A program made the translations under genes and the position numbers. Shown in pieces: positions 14,651 through 29,355 of a stretch of 29,355 nt of DNA. The notes beneath the pieces were generated by a model. The model was not told the origin of the DNA, did no database searches, and was given only the letters and a program-made list of their open reading frames with translations. The stretch comes from a virus. Lineage: Duplodnaviria > Heunggongvirae > Uroviricota > Caudoviricetes. Location of the stretch: the IMG/VR virus record IMGVR_UViG_2541047722_000019. One strand, given 5' to 3'. Numbering within the stretch: the stretch's first letter is position 1; every line of letters starts with the position of its first letter.

Positions 14651-15374
14651 AGCTTGCCCCTCCCCATGAGAGATAACGCGGGGCCAGCGTGAACAGGATG
14701 CGCTGGGGATAATGACGGTTCTCCCGCCAGCTGGCAGTGCTGCGTCCGGCATTCACCGTGGCGACATGACCAAACCAGCGGGTGCTGTCCAGCCCTTTTT
14801 GTGATGCAAGCCGCCTGTCCCGCTGTACCCAGCCCAGACCACCGTTATAGCCCGACAGTGTCATGGCCATACGCTCGCAGTCACTGGCGGCGCTGACGCG
14901 CTGCCACAGCCAGCGGTCATAGCTGACCAGCGCCCGGATGGCCCATGCCGGATTAAATGGCTCACGGCTGTTAAGCCCCGGCATCAACTGACTTATCCAG
15001 TCGGCGGTGGCGGGCATGAACTGCGCCAGTCCCTGAGCGCCAACCGGCGAGATCGCATCAGGTCGCCAGCCGCTTTCCTGATGCAGTTGCGCAGCGAAAT
15101 CAGCCACCGGCGCAGACAGTCCCCATTCAAGCCGGGCATTACGGATCACATCATCGCGATACTGCAGCGCTGCCTGCGGAGGCTGCGCTGCGCGGGCCTG
15201 ACTGAAGAAGCCGCCACACCAGAGCAACATTGCGACAAAGAATACCCGTGCCATATGAACCAGAAAGGTCCCGGCGCGGACTGACAGGCGTTCGGTTCTG
15301 ATGAAGACCCTAAAGGCTTCGAAAGCCAGTTTCAGGGACATGCATACAATCCAGGTGATCTGCGGCCAGTTCAT
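14637..15374 (-). CDS. Endolysin, lytic transglycosylase with N-terminal signal or SAR-like segment
   Basis: Family-1 transglycosylase motif HQESGWRPDAISPVGAQGLAQFMPATA. Hydrophobic N-terminal segment MARVFFVAMLLWCGGFF. True start may be ATG 15254 (M41) rather than 15374. Confidence 0.75.
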   Translation of the reverse strand: MNWPQITWIVCMSLKLAFEAFRVFIRTERLSVRAGTFLVHMARVFFVAMLLWCGGFFSQARAAQPPQAALQYRDDVIRNARLEWGLSAPVADFAAQLHQESGWRPDAISPVGAQGLAQFMPATADWISQLMPGLNSREPFNPAWAIRALVSYDRWLWQRVSAASDCERMAMTLSGYNGGLGWVQRDRRLASQKGLDSTRWFGHVATVNAGRSTASWRENRHYPQRILFTLAPRYLSWGGASCVGT

Positions 15375-15376
15375 GA

Positions 15377-15727
15377 TTAAAGCCCCATCGCAACAGCCAG
15401 ACAGACCGCTGCAACAATCAGTGCACGGCGGATTAACGCAGCAGAAAACACCAGGTGAAGGCCGGTCTGTACCGGGAAACGCCCATCAGCCATCAGCCTG
15501 TCGTCATGTTTCAGGTACTGACCGGGACGGGCTTTGGGGAAGAGCGAACGGTCAAGCCAGTAACCCAGCACTGCTGCCAGCGTGATGAGTGCCAGCTTGT
15601 AGATCACAACAGGCAACTGCTGTGGCGAGACCAGAGCGATGGTGCCCAGCAACAGCACTGAGGTCAGCAGCCAGCCGCTGAGGCGAGGTTTTTTAACAGG
15701 GGGAATGAATTTTTTCAGGTTTTTCAT
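15377..15727 (-). CDS. Holin-like membrane protein (first late cistron)
   Basis: Three predicted hydrophobic helices. ATG 15727 has GGAG 6 nt upstream; the track ORF extends to GTG 15760. Sits directly upstream of the endolysin gene. Confidence 0.45.
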   Translation of the reverse strand: MKNLKKFIPPVKKPRLSGWLLTSVLLLGTIALVSPQQLPVVIYKLALITLAAVLGYWLDRSLFPKARPGQYLKHDDRLMADGRFPVQTGLHLVFSAALIRRALIVAAVCLAVAMGL

Positions 15728-15857
15728 GTGTGTCTCCTTGTCTGGTGGAGACAGCATCACAAATACAGGGCGCGAAGGATTTTAAAGCGCGTTAAGAGAG
15801 CCGGGGATACGGGATGTGCAGGATAAACGATGAATTATTCACAGAGGAGAATACGAT
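15728..15857. promoter_or_regulatory. Divergent promoter region (late operon leftward, cargo operon rightward) with RBS-overlapping inverted repeat
   Basis: 130-bp gap between divergent starts 15727 (-) and 15858 (+). Perfect inverted repeat TGTCTCC(9)GGAGACA at 15731-15753, whose one arm is the GGAG ribosome-binding site of the late gene. Confidence 0.4.
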
Positions 15858-16601
15858 ATGACGCAGACACTGAATCCGGTCATCACTGTCACCGTGTCCG
15901 GTCCTGTGGGCAGCGGTAAAAGTTACATATTGGCGCGGATAGAGGAAGTGGTGAAACAGGAATTCGGGGGCAGCGTCATTGTCGATGCTGCAGACGTAGA
16001 TGATGAGCGGCGTATGAGTGGCGATGATCTGACGACCTGGCAGAAGCCACGGGGTGGCACAGTGATCAGGCTGGAGGAATACACGGGACAGGGCCTGTTG
16101 TCATACGGCGAGGAGCGTATCTGTCGGACGAATGAGCTGCTGGATGTTATATGCCCCACGGGCCGGCAACCCTGGATACTGCCCGATGCACTGCATGCCA
16201 CCATTGCGGCACTGATGACAGTTTACGATCAGGAGCTGCTCATGAAGGAGCTACGTAAACTCACCGGTCAGCCAACAGAATGTTTTTCTGCCCCGAAGTA
16301 CGGGAAACAGGAACACATCCCGGTGAACACGCTCCCCGTTAACCAGCCTCCCCGGTTCTTCGACGAATACATTCTGACACCGGAAAATAAAGCTGAGCAC
16401 GAAGAGATCAAAGCGGCGTTGTTCCGGGAAATCAGGAAGATTGCTGAAATGCAACTGGGGGGCGGGCTGGACAGAGTGATGGCGAGAGGAGAATGGGAGT
16501 CGCTGTTTGAAAGAGTTTCCCCGGAATTACTTCCCCTCGCACTGGCTATCGGGATTATGCAGACAGCGGATAAACCTCACTTACGTTCATTAAACACGTA
16601 A
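15858..16601 (+). CDS. P-loop NTPase of unknown function
   Basis: ATG with AGAGGAGA 7 nt upstream. Walker A GPVGSGKS at residues 15-22. No resemblance to phage structural, lysis or transposition proteins that I recognise. Confidence 0.6.
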   Translation: MTQTLNPVITVTVSGPVGSGKSYILARIEEVVKQEFGGSVIVDAADVDDERRMSGDDLTTWQKPRGGTVIRLEEYTGQGLLSYGEERICRTNELLDVICPTGRQPWILPDALHATIAALMTVYDQELLMKELRKLTGQPTECFSAPKYGKQEHIPVNTLPVNQPPRFFDEYILTPENKAEHEEIKAALFREIRKIAEMQLGGGLDRVMARGEWESLFERVSPELLPLALAIGIMQTADKPHLRSLNT

Positions 16602-16981
16602 CGCATAATCCGGGATACGCATTCAGCGATGACTGCATTTTCACCGGTTTTTACTGCATCCAGAAGTGACTCTTTAAATGGTGCGGGCCGGGGCTGCAGA
16701 AGGGTCGGCGTGGCATTGAGCAGACGGAGCGTTTTTTCCGTGAGGACGACATCAGCCGCTCCCACAGCCAGCAACTGAGAGTAACGAATATAGCTGTTAT
16801 CCCGAAGCCATATCAGCGTATCAATAAAATACCGGCACTTTTTCTGGTCGTGATCAACCTGGTCCGGGATATCGAAAAAACCAGAATAAATCAAAACCTG
16901 AGGTGCCGGATGCGTGTTCAGTAATCGGCAGAATATTTTGCCGGTGAGTGCATAAAAATCATCATTTAAGGAGTGCATCAT
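16577..16981 (-). CDS. Hypothetical protein, convergent with and overlapping the P-loop gene 3' end
   Basis: 134-codon ORF that exactly fills the 378-bp stretch where the plus strand has no ORF. 3' ends overlap by 25 bp (16577-16601). Lower GC by eye. Confidence 0.4.
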   Translation of the reverse strand: MMHSLNDDFYALTGKIFCRLLNTHPAPQVLIYSGFFDIPDQVDHDQKKCRYFIDTLIWLRDNSYIRYSQLLAVGAADVVLTEKTLRLLNATPTLLQPRPAPFKESLLDAVKTGENAVIAECVSRIMRYVFNERK

Positions 16982-17195
16982 GAATCCCCGATTAACGTTA
17001 ACAGAACATCAGCGCCGTGCTGAAGCAGTGAACAATGTTCTGGAAGATATTATCCGGTTACATCGCGGAGAACTGAGTGTCTGTCGTGCCGCTTTTCATT
17101 TTCAGGGAATACAAAAGCAGTTTGATACTTCTGTTTTTGCAGAAGGTATTACTTATGCCCTGGACCGGATAAGGTCAGAAAATCGCCCCGGATAA
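16980..17195 (+). CDS. Small hypothetical protein
   Basis: 71-aa ORF with AAGGAG 7 nt upstream of ATG. Its start codon is back-to-back with the start of the minus-strand ORF, so both are unlikely to have independent promoters. Confidence 0.3.
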   Translation: MNPRLTLTEHQRRAEAVNNVLEDIIRLHRGELSVCRAAFHFQGIQKQFDTSVFAEGITYALDRIRSENRPG

Positions 17196-17251
17196 TCCCT
17201 AAACCACATTAACAGAAATCCCACTATCCCTGCCGCATCATGAAAGAACGA

Positions 17252-17282
17252 CCAGCCCGGTGCTTCGGACCCACCGGGCTGG
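17252..17282. other. GC-rich perfect hairpin (11-bp stem, CTTCGG-containing loop)
   Basis: CCAGCCCGGTG-cttcggacc-CACCGGGCTGG. No clean T-tract on the plus strand; a weak one (TCGTTCTTTCA) on the minus strand. Confidence 0.35.
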
Positions 17283-17386
17283 CCATCGTCCCACAGAAGT
17301 GGCTGTGAGCCGACCGAGGTTCAGTCAGTCTCGCGAGACCAGACTAGCCTGCCATATTTTTAATAATTGTAAAAGGCTTACAGATT

Positions 17387-18151
17387 ATGAAAATGAAGAC
17401 ATTACCCATCGTTCCATGGATTGGTGGCAAACGTCGCCTGGCAAAACACATCCTGCCGCTGTTTCCGGCGCATGAATGTTATGTGGAGCCGTTTTGTGGG
17501 GCAGCAGCGCTCTATTTTCTTAAGACACCCGGCAAGATCGAAGTCATCAATGATATCAACGGTGAACTGGTGAATCTGTACCGGGTGGTAAAGCATCACC
17601 TGGAAGAATTTGTCCGCCAGTTCAAATGGGCGCTGGTCAGCCGTCAGATCTACAAATGGCTGCAGATCACCCCGGAAGAAACACTGACGGATATCCAGCG
17701 TGCGGCACGGTTCTACTACCTTCAGAAGCAGGCGTTTGGCGGCAAGGTGGCAGAGCACAGCTTCGGTACCTCCACCACATCCCCGCCACGCTTCAACCTG
17801 CTGCGTATTGAAGAAGAACTGTCAGCAGCACACCTGCGGCTTTCCAGAACAGTCATAGAACACATGGACTGGCAACAGTGCATTGAGCGTTATGATCGTC
17901 CGCACACACTGTTCTACTGCGACCCACCGTACCTGGGTACGGAAGGCTATGGTGTGGATTTTCCTGAAGGGAACTACTCGCGGCTGGCAGAGCTGGCCCG
18001 GTGCATCAGAGGAAAAATGATAATTTCGGTGAACGATATCCCACAGATGCGCGAGGTGTTCACTGGACTGAACATACAGACAGTGAACATCAACTACAGT
18101 CTGGCGGGGAAATCTACGCCGCGCCGTGAACTGGTAATCTGCAACTTCTGA
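17387..18151 (+). CDS. dam: N6-adenine DNA methyltransferase, Dam family (orphan, no adjacent restriction gene)
   Basis: N-terminal WIGGKRRL and VEPFCGAAALYF (SAM-binding motif I) plus FYCDPPY catalytic motif. 254 aa, close to E. coli Dam in size and motif order. Confidence 0.85.
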   Translation: MKMKTLPIVPWIGGKRRLAKHILPLFPAHECYVEPFCGAAALYFLKTPGKIEVINDINGELVNLYRVVKHHLEEFVRQFKWALVSRQIYKWLQITPEETLTDIQRAARFYYLQKQAFGGKVAEHSFGTSTTSPPRFNLLRIEEELSAAHLRLSRTVIEHMDWQQCIERYDRPHTLFYCDPPYLGTEGYGVDFPEGNYSRLAELARCIRGKMIISVNDIPQMREVFTGLNIQTVNINYSLAGKSTPRRELVICNF

Positions 18152-18181
18152 AACAAAACCGGAAAGCACAATGCTTTCCGG
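18151..18181 (-). terminator. Intrinsic terminator for the repressor transcript
   Basis: Perfect 10-bp stem CCGGAAAGCA / TGCTTTCCGG with 3-nt loop, followed on the minus strand by TTTTGTTT. Lies 87 nt after the repressor stop. Confidence 0.5.
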
Positions 18182-18267
18182 TAAACCAAACAACTTCCAC
18201 TATGTCACTGGCGATGTTTTCTGAAAGCATCCAGATCAACCACCTGTCCTTTGTGTCCAGGTCAAAA

Positions 18268-18606
18268 TCAGCCTGCGAGTTTGCTTGGTTTGGGTTGAAT
18301 GAAGACTTTGCCGACCTCAAGAATTGCCCTCCGTTGTTCGGGGCTCATTTCGTCGAATGCATCCATTAACTCTTTCTTTTCTTGTGACACATAAGGTGCA
18401 ACAACAGGCTGACTCCGCACCCCAGTAACTACATACAAAATATCTACACCGATTTCTGATAGTGCAGATAACTGCACTGCAGTAGGAGAAGTGCGATCTT
18501 TTTCCCAATCAATGAAAGTTCTCTTTGCCACACCTATAGCATCAGCCAACCCTTGCTGTGTAAGAGATAGACGCTCTCTTTCTTCTTTAATACGTAACCC
18601 GATCAT
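18268..18606 (-). CDS. Prophage repressor, HTH XRE family
   Basis: MIGLRIKEERERLSLTQQGLADAIGVAKRTFIDWEKDRTSP is a classic XRE helix-turn-helix. The track ORF starts with GTG inside the divergent ner-like gene; ATG 18606 is the likely start and has no obvious SD (possibly leaderless). Confidence 0.7.
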   Translation of the reverse strand: MIGLRIKEERERLSLTQQGLADAIGVAKRTFIDWEKDRTSPTAVQLSALSEIGVDILYVVTGVRSQPVVAPYVSQEKKELMDAFDEMSPEQRRAILEVGKVFIQPKPSKLAG

Positions 18607-18706
18607 GTGAGTTTTTCTGCACTCTTTAAGTTGACTGGTGAGGTAATCTGCACCATAATCTATCACACATAAGGCAAACATCATTGCATCAACAAAGGAG
18701 ACAACG
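18607..18706. promoter_or_regulatory. Switch region: early promoter and candidate operators
   Basis: Near-consensus sigma70 promoter on the plus strand: TTGACT (18631-18636), 17 bp, CATAAT (18654-18659). Direct repeats TCTGCAC at 18616-18622 and 18647-18653, the second inside the spacer. Confidence 0.45.
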
Positions 18707-18895
18707 ATGACTGCAGAACAAGTCAAAGCTCTCTTCCGCCAGCGCGGGATCACTTTCACCCGCTGGGCAGAAGAAAACGGCTACAACCGCAATGAGGTAT
18801 ACCGCGTTCTCAATGGGCAGACCAAAGCCCGTTACGGTAAATCCCATGAAATCGCCGTGAAGTTGGGGCTGAAATCAACAGCTCAGGCAGCCTGA
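18707..18895 (+). CDS. Ner/Cro-like small DNA-binding regulator
   Basis: 62 aa, AGGAG 6 nt upstream, first gene of the early operon divergent from the repressor. Residue pattern RQRGITFTRWAEENGYNRNEVYRVLNG parallels Mu Ner. Confidence 0.55.
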   Translation: MTAEQVKALFRQRGITFTRWAEENGYNRNEVYRVLNGQTKARYGKSHEIAVKLGLKSTAQAA

Positions 18896-18947
18896 AGATT
18901 TTGAGTCTTTGTAAAAGGTTATCACATATCGCAAAAGAGGTATGCAG

Positions 18948-19256
18948 ATGAGTAAGACGAATGTTTCAAGCTCCGGCAGTCGCATCCTCCGGGTACTCAA
19001 AGCGCTGCGCGGTCATGCCCTGAACGGTATTTCCAACGGTGAACTGGCGGCAGCACTGCACGAGTCACCGGCAAACATCAACCGGGCACTCAACACCCTC
19101 ATTGAAGAAGGGTTGGCCCTGAAACTGGAAAACGGGCGTTTCGCGCCGGGCATCCAGTTACTGCAGATCGCTATGGCCCACAGTAACGAGATGGCACGTG
19201 CACAGGATCGCATTAACGAAATCAACCAACGTGTCATTTCAGGTAGTCGTTTGTAA
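18948..19256 (+). CDS. Winged-helix-like small DNA-binding protein
   Basis: Segment RILRVLKALRGHALNGISNGELAAALHESPANINRALNTLIEEGL looks like a wHTH. Start taken at the second ATG (18948), which has better SD spacing to AAGAGG. Confidence 0.45.
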   Translation: MSKTNVSSSGSRILRVLKALRGHALNGISNGELAAALHESPANINRALNTLIEEGLALKLENGRFAPGIQLLQIAMAHSNEMARAQDRINEINQRVISGSRL

Positions 19257-19266
19257 GGAGTAATAA

Positions 19267-20178
19267 ATGGGACGCACCAAATCACCGATTAACACTGAAC
19301 TGAACGCCGAGGTACCGCTGTCGGATGATCTCAATGTCAGTCTGAACGCCATGACACAGCATCGTATGGAGATCATGCAGCAGTTTGGCGATGGTCAGCC
19401 CTATGAGCGTGATCGCATAGTTCATGAGGCTCGGTTTTATATGGCACAGAGCGCTGAGGCCATGCTGGAAGCAGGTAAACGACTTATTATTCTCAAAGAA
19501 AATGAACCTCACGGGGACTTTGTTGGAATTGTAGAAGAACAACTTGGTCTGCATGTGCGCGCAGCACAACGAATGATGAAAGCATCTTTGAAATACCTTT
19601 CACCAAAACTAGAGCCAAAAGCGACAACGTTGTCGCTTTTAGGTAAGGCAAAATTATTTGAACTTGTTGCTGAAGATGACGACGACCTTGCTGAACTGGC
19701 CGACGGTGGCACAGTTGCCGGACTGACGCTTGACGATGTTGATCGCATGTCAGTACGTGAATTGCGTCAGGCCCTGCGCGAAGCGCGCGAAACCAACGCA
19801 GCACAACAGCGCGTACTCGCCGACAAAAATGAAAAAATAGACTCACTCTCCACCAGACTGGAGAAGAAATCCCGTATTCAGCCACCTGAGCCTGATGAAG
19901 AGGTGAAGAAACTGCGGGCAGAAGTGACCGCGTTAGCGGTTGAGGCGGAATCTGCCATCGCCGTTCGACTGTCCAGCGCTTTTGAGACGCTGTGCGCATA
20001 TTGTGCTGAAAACATGATTGATACCCCCAGAGACTTCATGGCAGGCCTGGTCTGTCAACTGGAAAGCACAGCGCGTAGCCTGCGCTCCACATTTGACCTG
20101 CCGGACGAGCCAACAGGCAATGCAGCGCCTTCATGGCTGACTGAGCCGACGCCACAGATTAACGGGCTGGAGGCATAA
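19267..20178 (+). CDS. Hypothetical early protein, acidic with coiled-coil segments
   Basis: 303 aa, AAGGAG 6 nt upstream; stop 3 nt before the transposase ATG. No motif recognised. Confidence 0.5.
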   Translation: MGRTKSPINTELNAEVPLSDDLNVSLNAMTQHRMEIMQQFGDGQPYERDRIVHEARFYMAQSAEAMLEAGKRLIILKENEPHGDFVGIVEEQLGLHVRAAQRMMKASLKYLSPKLEPKATTLSLLGKAKLFELVAEDDDDLAELADGGTVAGLTLDDVDRMSVRELRQALREARETNAAQQRVLADKNEKIDSLSTRLEKKSRIQPPEPDEEVKKLRAEVTALAVEAESAIAVRLSSAFETLCAYCAENMIDTPRDFMAGLVCQLESTARSLRSTFDLPDEPTGNAAPSWLTEPTPQINGLEA

Positions 20179-27819: not shown

Positions 27820-27865
27820 GTTATTTATCTCACGGATCCCCCTTCATTTATCTCATGTCTGATCA
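27820..27865. repeat. Prophage terminus with direct repeats (candidate transposase-binding sites)
   Basis: ATTTATCTCA occurs at 27823-27832 and 27846-27855, with a related CTTATCTATCG at ~27750. On the host-facing strand the element end reads 5'-TGATCAGACATGAGATAAATG. Confidence 0.45.
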
Positions 27866-29355
27866 CTGCCGTGAGCAGAGGCGCGCAGGATCGACCGTAG
27901 TTGTGTGGTAAACAACGACGCGTATTCTTCATAAATACGCACCGCGCGATAACCGAGGAACGGGTTAGCTTCTGCCGGAATGTTCAGATAATCAACGGGT
28001 TTATCACCGCCAATGTCCATAGTGCGCACAATAATGCTGCGTCCGTTGGCAGACTCCAGCGCCTGACAAAAAATGTTGTACAGCTCGCTTTCGCCCGGTG
28101 CACTGGTGCGATCCATATAGAGCATTTCAGTGCGGAACAAACCAACGCCTTCCGCACCATTGCCGAATGCGGCCTGCGCTTCCACGGAGTGAGCGATGTT
28201 AGCGGCAATTTCAATGCGGATACCGTCAGCGGTACGCGCTTGCTGGGTCAGCCAGACACGCTGTTGCTCACGCAGAGCGTCCTGTACGCGGGCTTCTTGC
28301 TGATAATAACGGGCCACGGATTCCCCTGGCTCAACCACAATCGCCCCTGCGTTGCCGTCGATATAAATCGTCTGATGCTGCCACGGAGTAAGGGCAGCAA
28401 TATCCACACCTACCAGCGTCGGAATGTTGAACGAACGGGCAAGGATCACAGTATGTGAGGTGGTGCCGCCACTTTTCAGTAACAGACCTTTGAGATGATT
28501 TTTATCCAGTTCGAGGAACTGGCTGGGGGTCAGTTCATCAGCCATACAAATGGCGGGCTGCGTCAGTTTGCCCGGTGCCGGGAAGCGTTGCTCACCGTAG
28601 ATTTGCTGGAGTAACTGGAAGCAGACGTCGCGTACGTCCAGGGCACGTTCTTGCAGGTAGCTGCTGCTGGAACGGGCGAACTCTTCGCAAAAGTGATTCG
28701 CACTGGCAACAATCGCTTCGGCGCAGCTTAATCCGGCGCTGACACCTGCCAGTAAATGTTCGCGCAGGGAAGTATCGCCAGCCAGGGATCGGTGCGCTTC
28801 CAGAATCGCGCTGGTAGCACCGTCGCTATCCAGCAGACGAAACTCTATGTTTTTCAGTACCAGCGTCAGACCGTTTTCCAGTGCGGATTGTTCGGCGTCA
28901 ACGCCTTTGGCTGCGGGAAGATTACCCAGCGCATTGAGATCTAAAGAAGAGATCGGCGTCAGAATGCCGCCTGCGCTACCACTGCACACGGTGCGAGCAC
29001 GGATAATTTGCGGATTCAGATTGGTCAGTGAAACCGGCAGTGGTTCCAGTTCGTCAGATTTTACTTCCGCCAGCGGTGCGTCGCAGTGGGGGAATTCATC
29101 GCGCAGCCATTGGCTTAAACGCTGGTACGCTTCCTGTTCGTCGGCCCCGGAAATCAGTAACTGGCAGTTATCGCCCACCAGCGTATCGGTGCCAATCAGC
29201 GCAAGGGCGCTTTTGGCGTTGCCCTTGCGGTCAGTGCGCAGGTTATGCCACTCAATTTGTGATGAAAAAGTATTACACAGCGTTTCAACGTGGCTTGCCG
29301 GACGCGCATGGACGCCGTTAGGTAGCTCACAAATAAATTCCACAATCAGGGCCAT
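27866..29355 (-). pseudogene. ptsA: Host PTS multiphosphoryl transfer protein (HPr-Enzyme I fusion), 5' ~1.5 kb only, interrupted by prophage insertion
   Basis: HPr signature GVHARPASH at the N-terminus, EI phospho-His motif GGTTSHTVILARSFNIPTLVG, and PEP-utilising motifs GAEGVGLFRTEMLYMDR and NPFLGYRAVRIY. The reading frame ends at ...LRASAHGSDQT*, mid-domain. Symbol is from recollection of the E. coli PtsA/FrwA N-terminus; a FryA-type paralogue is not excluded. Confidence 0.6.

Follow-up and report, generated by a model that had tools for sequence, protein, structure and literature searches.

Phage Mu keeps its DNA-modification gene, in the com-mom system, for late infection and gates it at the level of translation; in the face-to-face promoter switches of coliphages 186 and P2, and in "excludon" loci, divergent genes are expressed on an either/or basis. 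Both are points of reference for the locus described here, the gene slot between the holin and the repressor of a BcepMu-type prophage (positions 15,858 to 18,151 of IMG/VR record IMGVR_UViG_2541047722_000019, a stretch of 29,355 nucleotides which we call the window). On its plus strand the slot encodes a 247-amino-acid (aa) protein with a phosphate-binding loop (P-loop), a 71-aa protein and an orphan Dam-family methylase headed by a structured RNA leader, and on its minus strand a 134-aa open reading frame (ORF) (Table 1). The methylase itself is already in the literature: 99% identical to it at the amino acid level is the methylase of prophage Phi2 of Escherichia coli ST131 EC958, M.EcoMIV (EC958_1101), a putative orphan enzyme of the D12 class (PMC4659465, PMC5654935). 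Its location on Phi2 is given in the second of these papers (PMC5654935). In mid-log lysogen culture it was transcribed far below dam, and no methylation motif could be assigned to it (PMC4659465). Most relatives of the 134-aa protein are encoded in P2-like prophages, in the interval that separates gpQ (portal) from gpA (replication) and is the main defence hotspot of P2-like phages (PMC9122126; PMC13586616). In the libraries and papers searched the leader RNA, the cassette formed by the 134-aa and 71-aa ORFs and the mosaic of the small P-loop module appear to be undescribed.

What is best supported is the anatomy: a plus-strand frame which opens with a mosaic ORF in a constant starting position, closes with the leader and methylase, and encloses an exchangeable gene on the minus strand. 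We read this frame as a lytic-phase transcription unit which ends in a tightly repressed methylase and carries a swappable antisense cassette, and we would put the probability of this reading at about 0.45, that is, slightly below even. The four ORFs on which an earlier, sequence-only reading of the slot was built were all recovered where it had placed them. They are more than chance frames, since all have full-length PHROG matches (phrog_3787, E=4e-164; phrog_2266, E=6e-44; phrog_4490, E=2e-52; phrog_56, E=6e-101) and are annotated by PGAP in RefSeq genomes. Below, the loci compared are cited by locus number (L).

The ribosome-binding site and start codon of the methylase lie inside the conserved and covarying leader, which is kept in every lineage, including a Type C prophage that has lost the body of the methylase. 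Two candidate helices cover the ribosome-binding site, formed either by CUGUGAGCC (17303-17311) with GGCUUACAG (17374-17382) or by AGCCU with AGGCU. The leader was aligned in two sets, A11 with ten independently retrieved sequences and A12 with 50 non-redundant sequences from a pattern scan. RNAalifold analysis of A11 gave hairpins with compensatory changes together with the long-range CUGUGAGCC/GGCUUACAG helix over the Shine-Dalgarno region; 94.7% of cells are paired, as against 33-50% when the partners are slid, and there are 10 compensatory pairs. None of 500 shuffles reached the observed values. The single-sequence fold has the same architecture (z=-4.45).

The pattern scan returned 81 viral contigs, and in all 80 that were usable the leader is followed by the methylase. 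Within A12, 97% of cells are paired and compensatory change is found at 12 pairs (96 cells), values likewise reached in 0/500 shuffles; one helix splits 25:25 between A-U and G-C, and seven of the nine pairs of hairpin 1 are compensatory. The RNA is of the methylase sense, because the widespread G.U pairs would be C.A on the other strand. Against Rfam 15 the leader has no match; two chance matches to small nucleolar RNAs (E 0.17 and 0.61) fall elsewhere in 15300-19300. The folded model predicts that the leader sequesters the ribosome-binding site.

The protein that follows belongs to its family both by PF02086 (E=5.9e-29; 102 bits, cutoff 22) and by TIGR00571 (117.4 bits, cutoff 114.85), with DPPY at residues 179-182 and the S-adenosylmethionine-binding motif EPFCGAAA at residues 34-41. 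Among solved structures its nearest relatives are DpnM (4e-17) and E. coli Dam (3e-14). It is not a Dam orthologue by the E. coli Dam equivalog NF008152, against which it scores 68 bits where the cutoff is 441, and no nuclease gene is annotated beside it. M.EcoGIX was considered as a possible methylase of a BcepMu-like prophage and dropped, as it is plasmid-borne according to the literature. The sequence-only reading had counted the methylase as part of a cargo island; with a ratio of nonsynonymous to synonymous substitution rates (dN/dS) of 0.03-0.09, indicating strong purifying selection, and 83% identity between E. coli and Serratia, it is on the contrary the most conserved element of the slot.

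At the other end of the frame the P-loop gene starts ~130 bp from the holin gene, divergently, in every enterobacterial BcepMu-like locus that carries it, down to 42% identity. The conserved blocks of the control region between the two are invariant in an alignment of seven lineages, including the Type C prophage, in which a different ORF begins at the same ATG. The near-palindrome TTAAAGCGCGTTAA is invariant or nearly so over E. coli, Citrobacter, Serratia and other lineages and stands at about half the distance between the two genes. A Mor-family protein is among those encoded by the phage, and we infer from the sequence that TTAAAGCGCGTTAA may be the site of a dimeric late activator working in both directions. 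Its use as a general late-activator site was considered and rejected: it is unique in the window, and other late operons give only matches with three mismatches, at chance level. As a separate observation, the 5' leader of the holin gene (15733-15751, minus strand) contains an inverted repeat, TCTCC...GGAGA, over the holin Shine-Dalgarno; in Serratia the same position reads CTCCAT...ATGGAG. The hairpin thus appears to covary, which suggests translational control of the holin.

The minus-strand gene nested in this frame shares 25 bp (16577-16601) with the 3' end of the 247-aa ORF and is antisense inside the plus-strand unit. From its predicted fold its product is a candidate for the winged-helix (MarR/PadR-like) DNA-binding proteins. 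Its probable start is the second ATG (16978), which puts the divergent starts of the 134-aa and 71-aa ORFs 1 nt apart and not overlapping. AAGGAG (16967-16972) is the Shine-Dalgarno of the 71-aa ORF, and GGGGA (minus strand, complement of 16986-16990) that of the 134-aa ORF. A lack of conservation of the 134-aa ORF would have counted against the sequence-only reading; its family in fact comprises 85 clusters across the Enterobacteriaceae, all hypothetical and without Pfam domains, and sequence motifs are kept across 41 diverse members. The homologues in the gpA-gpQ interval belong to P2-like phages of E. coli, Klebsiella, Salmonella and Serratia.

Opposite the family gene stands a small ORF of 59-73 aa whose start codon abuts that of its neighbour. 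The junction reads CATCATG in the BcepMu-like prophages of E. coli and of Serratia, and in the P2-like phages it reads CATG; in the loci fetched this geometry was found for 46 of 53 family instances, the exceptions making up a third, stand-alone subfamily, and it is kept at ~30% protein identity. The 71-aa protein has a Serratia homologue (30% identity, E=6e-11). The P2-type partner of 59-64 aa is conserved among E. coli, Klebsiella, Salmonella and Serratia, and homology between it and the 71-aa protein is not detectable. Because the starts abut, each messenger RNA must begin within the partner gene, antisense to the partner's ribosome-binding site, an overlap whose anatomy predicts mutual exclusion. 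A type II toxin-antitoxin pair was rejected as an explanation, the genes being divergent with abutting starts and not a co-directional operon. Nor is the 134-aa protein an indispensable antitoxin for the 71-aa ORF (in that polarity only), because L030 and L032 have lost it by a clean ~325-bp deletion which leaves the 71-aa ORF and the rest intact.

Taken as a lytic-phase unit with a nested cassette, the locus might work as follows. The plus-strand unit would be switched on in lytic growth, possibly from the TTAAAGCGCGTTAA palindrome shared with the lysis operon, and the leader would block translation of the methylase until a lytic-phase signal is received. The methylase could then mark replicating phage DNA and so protect it against restriction in the next host. 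Excess Dam activity is harmful, and leaky expression of this enzyme in the lysogen may be harmful in the same way. The cassette would be expressed from the opposite strand and in the other state, as a self-contained either/or switch in which the winged-helix-like protein binds DNA and the transcripts exclude each other; its output might be the regulation of neighbouring cargo or an anti-phage function.

A number of observations tell against this interpretation. A second, mutually exclusive architecture of the leader passes the controls equally, and the segments of the longer helix over the ribosome-binding site are invariant or vary by wobble only, without compensatory change. Since the A12 search pattern fixed both the CUGUGAGCC and GGCUUACAG segments, only A11, in which they are invariant, bears on that helix. 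No P-loop gene lies upstream in 57 of the 80 leader-methylase contigs, so the methylase may have its own promoter and a single plus-strand unit may hold for some lineages only. Occurring once in the window, TTAAAGCGCGTTAA cannot be shown as a general late-activator site, and a consensus promoter scan (4 sites, against 3.4 expected from shuffled sequence) identified no convincing promoter of the plus-strand unit or of the two cassette genes. The silence of M.EcoMIV comes from reverse transcription PCR on one strain in one growth condition. If the site of the methylase is GATC, it duplicates that of host Dam. Finally, a dN/dS of ~1 for the 134-aa gene among close variants from E. coli is also compatible with decay.

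A bolder version of the same interpretation is that the slot holds two undescribed devices, namely a class of RNA leader which gates a potentially mutagenic phage methylase to lytic growth, and a mobile either/or switch with abutting starts. This we regard as doubtful. Such devices would sit in a prophage of about one in nine complete E. coli genomes, and the cassette would move between Mu-like and P2-like hotspots as a new defence module or as a controller of defence cargo.

An unlikely alternative is that the 134-aa/71-aa pair is anti-phage or abortive-infection cargo expressed in the lysogen, the winged-helix-like protein sensing an invader and one of the two proteins acting as effector. 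The address of its homologues in the gpA-gpQ hotspot (PMC9122126) is in keeping with this, as is the finding that, of the unknown genes taken without prior test from the corresponding hotspot of P4, most turned out to be defensive (PMC13586616). The cassette moves from one phage family, and one position, to another, and both of its proteins evolve fast, with E. coli-Serratia identities of 53% (134-aa) and 30% (71-aa) set beside the 83% of the methylase. Neither protein, however, matches anything in PADLOC (PADLOC-DB v2.0.0), Pfam or NCBIfam, in agreement with the sequence-only reading, which could name no family for the P-loop protein or the 134-aa ORF, and no enzymatic or membrane effector domain is recognisable. 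The 134-aa family profile gave only sub-threshold matches against PDB and Pfam, e.g. RecJ_C and the IS5376 ATP-binding protein, and a Foldseek search of the 134-aa model against viral structures returned nothing at E<=0.001. In P2-like phages, moreover, the cassette stands beside larger variable cargo including big ATPases, so that it looks more like a constant flank than like cargo.

Two Serratia P2-like loci illustrate such neighbours. In L057 (575-4555) a 1,326-aa YobI-type ATPase lies downstream of the small ORF on the same strand, and in L058 (1852-4544) the corresponding place is taken by an AAA_15/AAA_21 ATPase and a 368-aa protein. This arrangement is compatible with a cassette that controls neighbouring defence genes. 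Elsewhere, in L033 (7528-8927), a duplicate of the first 33 methylase codons exists beside the intact gene, and the two are separated by a 126-aa winged-helix-like paralogue of the third subfamily (28% identity) without a small partner ORF; this duplication with insertion suggests that recombination at the 5' end of the methylase moves cassettes. Paralogues of the 134-aa gene are also found downstream of the methylase in L067 and L071.

The 247-aa protein carries the Walker A motif GPVGSGKS at residues 15-22, which agrees with the pattern GxxxxGK[ST]; within the E. coli family G15, G18, G20, K21 and S22 never vary, and the G and K residues are invariant in distant relatives too. The sequence-only reading had named it an NTPase. 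The Walker A motif bears this out in part, but the conserved module measures only ~75 aa, and Walker B and the other NTPase motifs are unmatched. An exhaustive HMMER search of 1.84 billion representatives gave 55 matches which share only residues 1-76, always at the N-terminus, in proteins of 70-364 aa; their C-termini beyond the module are unrelated or consist of short modules in shuffled order. The relatives recovered by a word-seeded search were all from E. coli, at >=65% identity. Residues ~105-134 and ~182-233 of the window protein are such modules, shuffled among relatives. Natural E. coli variants of 182, 158 and 141 aa are without the middle or C-terminal part (the 182-aa variants without residues 52-124), and the C-terminal module DWVTSR..WE..L is in Serratia an ORF of its own, of 89 aa, in the corresponding place. 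The position of the gene is thus fixed while its sequence after the N-terminal module varies.

A related observation comes from the Type C prophage of E. coli WS3294A (L008:805-1128, plus strand), where an unannotated ORF of ~107 aa begins at the ATG of the P-loop gene and is without a P-loop. It bears the module YTLS...FASGE.N.M.IGDV.ATS, known from the C-termini of distant P-loop family members, and overlaps the 3' end of a convergent DUF2441 gene.

Matches of the 247-aa protein to the profiles of solved NTPases end after ~40 residues, taking in the strand-Walker A-helix-strand element only. Among the curated NTPase families of Pfam all scores are below threshold (AAA_30, 17.1 bits, cutoff 27; KAP_NTPase, 13.1 bits, cutoff 20), and NCBIfam gives only ABC matches of ~15 bits. 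The RefSeq label of some short variants, ABC ATPase, we rejected, as the LSGGQ signature, Q-loop and H-loop are absent from the sequence; the ABC_tran matches, also below threshold, extend over profile positions 5-52 of 137 only. The conserved module has three predicted strands, in the order strand-(Walker A)-helix-strand-strand, with candidate acidic strands at residues 40-46 (VIVDAAD) and 69-74 (VIRLEE). An AlphaFold2 (AF2) model of the whole protein is unreliable, with a predicted local distance difference test score (pLDDT) of 43 from a shallow alignment. In distant high-GC phages the module occurs as a stand-alone protein of 70-158 aa in unrelated contexts. Three such proteins, of 70-83 aa, are found at L044:5989-6240, L048:5992-6216 and L051:5995-6207, in unrelated phages; because they consist of the module alone, it must be an autonomous small domain. 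A genome-collection scan with the module picked up mostly Walker A motifs of a general kind and yielded a single locus. We conclude from these alignments that the 247-aa protein has a real and selected phosphate-loop motif; membership in a full NTPase family is not established.

The mosaic character of this protein is also the starting point for a second, less probable alternative, in which the plus-strand genes form a counter-defence set with the P-loop protein as a lytic inhibitor or decoy, directed at the defence systems of the host and diversified by the shuffling of its modules, and the methylase as its anti-restriction partner. The locus is fixed and its C-terminal modules are highly mosaic, the gene is under moderate purifying selection (dN/dS ~0.23), and it is divergent from the lysis operon with which it shares a conserved control region; in L043, the simplest lineage, the methylase gene is its neighbour and runs in the same direction. 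What speaks against a counter-defence set is that the P-loop protein shows no homology to known anti-defence proteins, that its AF2 model is of such low confidence, and that most leader-methylase prophages are without the P-loop gene. Recurrent linkage of small P-loop genes to DNA methylases in unrelated phages was considered and rejected, such adjacency having been seen only in L046.

Decay is the third possibility, and an improbable one, by which the 134-aa and 71-aa ORFs are decaying remnants that no longer have a function in this prophage. Among close E. coli variants the dN/dS of the cassette is near or above 1 (for the 134-aa gene, ~1, with e.g. 6 nonsynonymous and 0 synonymous changes), albeit on small counts; the 134-aa gene has been lost from some prophages, and the small ORF is truncated in L056. 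In the more divergent comparison with L020, however, the 134-aa gene has a dN/dS of 0.29, its motifs are conserved across the diverse members mentioned above, and both ORFs are open with their abutting-start geometry kept across genera and phage families at 30-53% identity.

The preferred reading, of a constant frame with exchangeable contents, agrees with the synteny comparison. The sequence-only reading had suspected variation in the slot which separates the first late gene from the repressor, and at least five gene sets were found in E. coli, Klebsiella, Citrobacter and Serratia relatives. L009 has the arrangement of the window with two extra genes beside the repressor; L007 and L034-L039 have a short P-loop gene and two unknown minus-strand genes operonic with the repressor, without methylase; L008 carries DUF2441 and unknown genes, and KP12 carries DUF2441 and the methylase. 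Citrobacter-type and other arrangements complete the series. The nested minus-strand gene may be the winged-helix-like cassette, as in the window, a coiled-coil-like gene of 113 or 173 aa (L019, L042) or DUF2441 (L008, KP12), and in L043 there is none, the P-loop gene being followed directly by leader and methylase. The alternative occupants match no PADLOC family.

The sequence-only reading had also taken the presumed NTPase and the 134-aa ORF for partners, which their distribution contradicts: the P-loop gene occurs without the 134-aa/71-aa pair in L007, L019 and L041-L043, and the pair without the P-loop gene in P2-like phages. Judged by sequence, the slot is three modules with separate evolutionary histories and not one system, and nothing links it to defence except the cassette's address in P2-like phages. 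Apart from the methylase no component fits a known PADLOC defence family. That the whole 2.3-kb stretch is one methylation-linked or restriction-modification-like defence system, close to what the sequence-only reading implied, is very improbable: a P-loop protein, two unknowns and a methylase do lie together in a low-GC stretch at a module junction, and the P-loop region has a weak PADLOC match to mad8 (E=0.0046), but that match (14.5 bits) spans only the generic P-loop region, the components are distributed independently of each other, which already contradicts a single system, the genes lie on both strands with overlapping ends, there is no nuclease, and the methylase is silent in the lysogen (PMC4659465).

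Table 1. Coordinates of the features of the slot and its borders in the window.
Feature	Position	Strand	Remarks
Holin	15377-15727	-	first gene of late operon; PGAP
Divergent control region	15728..15857		near-palindrome TTAAAGCGCGTTAA 15782-15795 and block GCAGGAT 15818-15824
247-aa mosaic protein	15858..16601	+	mini P-loop module = residues 1-76 (15858-16085)
134-aa protein (probably 133 aa, start 16978)	16577..16981	-	winged-helix-like core and C-terminal helical hairpin, predicted
Start-codon junction CATCATG	16976..16982		each Shine-Dalgarno within the other gene's first codons
71-aa small helical protein	16980..17195	+	phrog_4490; divergent partner of 134-aa gene
Structured RNA leader, ~150 nt	17241..17389	+	hairpin 1 (17252-17282), CACAG/CUGUG hairpin, hairpin 3
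Orphan Dam-family (D12 class) N6-adenine DNA methyltransferase, 254 aa	17387..18151	+	M.EcoMIV type
Perfect 11-bp hairpin	18158..18182		between methylase stop and repressor stop; terminator-like, T-run on minus strand
Repressor (helix-turn-helix)	18268-18726	-	PGAP

The prophage itself is of the same BcepMu type of transposable element as Phi2 of EC958. A prophage in E. coli DA33135 matches it at 100% identity, and phage PhiKM, assigned to Bcepmuvirus, at 96.6%. Matches to the window were found in 636 of 5,426 complete E. coli genomes, with >=80% of a 4-kb query covered in 475. The sequence-only reading had measured the slot against the gene order of Mu, which is the wrong comparator: BcepMu-type genomes have divergent early and late operons, for which reason the classical Mu order is unsuitable, and a gene slot between repressor and holin is usual for the type. 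Its remark that the segment is lower in GC than the structural genes proved right (46-55% over 15.3-19.8 kb vs 57-62%).

To the left of the slot the late operon, on the minus strand, begins with the holin (PF13272) and an SLT endolysin. To the right the repressor, with a helix-turn-helix (HTH) domain, is followed on the plus strand by a Ner-like gene of the BcepMu gp16 family, an IclR-like gene, a DUF3102 gene and the transposase gene. The annotation of the repressor is probably too long, its HTH domain starting from Met52 (ATG ~18606; window 18606-18759). A strong promoter-like site for the Ner-like gene, TTGACT-17-CATAAT (18631-18659; 10/12 matches), lies inside the annotated repressor N-terminus. 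Because of these two features the 20-bp 5' overlap of the repressor and Ner-like genes in the PGAP annotation is probably an artefact, and we rejected it as a parallel to the abutting-start cassette. The right prophage end (window ~27860-28060; L001:18337-18528) adjoins a truncated gspL gene (type II secretion), so that the insertion disrupted gspL in this host. In EC958 a prophage of this type sits between aroA and ycaL, as one would expect of a transposable phage.

Compared with the type phage, the slot occupies the same genomic position as BcepMu gp18-gp20, between repressor gp17 and holin gp21, but its genes are entirely different: gp18-gp20 comprise one membrane protein and two small ones, all encoded in the direction of the late genes, with no methylase among them. 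M.EcoMIV on Phi2 is the same gene as the window methylase, in the same prophage type with the same neighbours. The published work concerns the methylase only, with no recognition site and nothing on the leader or the neighbours, and EC958_1098-1100 find no mention in the literature searched. Clinical E. coli carry the prophage widely, the pandemic ST131 clade C among them, and the slot is annotated almost wholly as "hypothetical". Its composition from separately inherited modules guards against filing it as a defence system or under "ABC transporter ATPase".

The P-loop module resembles the strand-Walker A-helix-strand of ABC-type nucleotide-binding domains and of designed minimal phosphate-loop proteins (PDB 8woi and 6c2u; E=3e-5 and 1e-4). 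The likeness to ABC domains extends over ~40 residues, without Q-loop, signature motif, Walker B or H-loop, and the conserved ~75-aa module also stands alone as a phage protein of 70-85 aa. It is a natural counterpart of the designed proteins, and in the bolder version of our interpretation it would be a minimal phosphate-binding domain that serves as a handle for shuffled effector modules.

Like the described cargo of the gpA-gpQ interval (old, tin, PARIS and others; PMC9122126, PMC13586616), the 134-aa homologues with their back-to-back small ORF lie between these two genes. They differ in having no known defence phenotype or defence-type domain and, standing beside other variable cargo, may be a flank or regulator and not an effector. 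As in the switches of 186 and P2 and in excludons, the cassette genes are divergent and their transcripts must overlap at the 5' ends, a geometry of mutual interference. Here, unlike in 186 and P2, the start codons themselves abut (1 nt apart or with a 2-nt overlap), so that the promoters must lie in the partner's coding sequence, and the proteins are unrelated to CI/Apl or C/Cox. The cassette ties together accessory hotspots of Mu-like and P2-like phages and is a candidate both for defence screens and for studies of antisense switches.

The leader and methylase are closest in concept to com-mom. The enzyme in the window is a Dam-type methylase and not Mom, its gene is genome-central and not at the right end, and the gating is predicted. 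No Com-like zinc-finger protein lies upstream of the methylase or elsewhere in the slot, the 71-aa ORF having a single cysteine and being absent from most leader-bearing prophages. Common to both is a DNA-modification gene of a Mu-type phage which is off in the lysogen and whose translation start is covered (here, as predicted) by RNA structure. The covarying leader offers a testable account of the silence of M.EcoMIV in methylome studies and, set beside com-mom, hints at how temperate phages may carry Dam-like enzymes safely.

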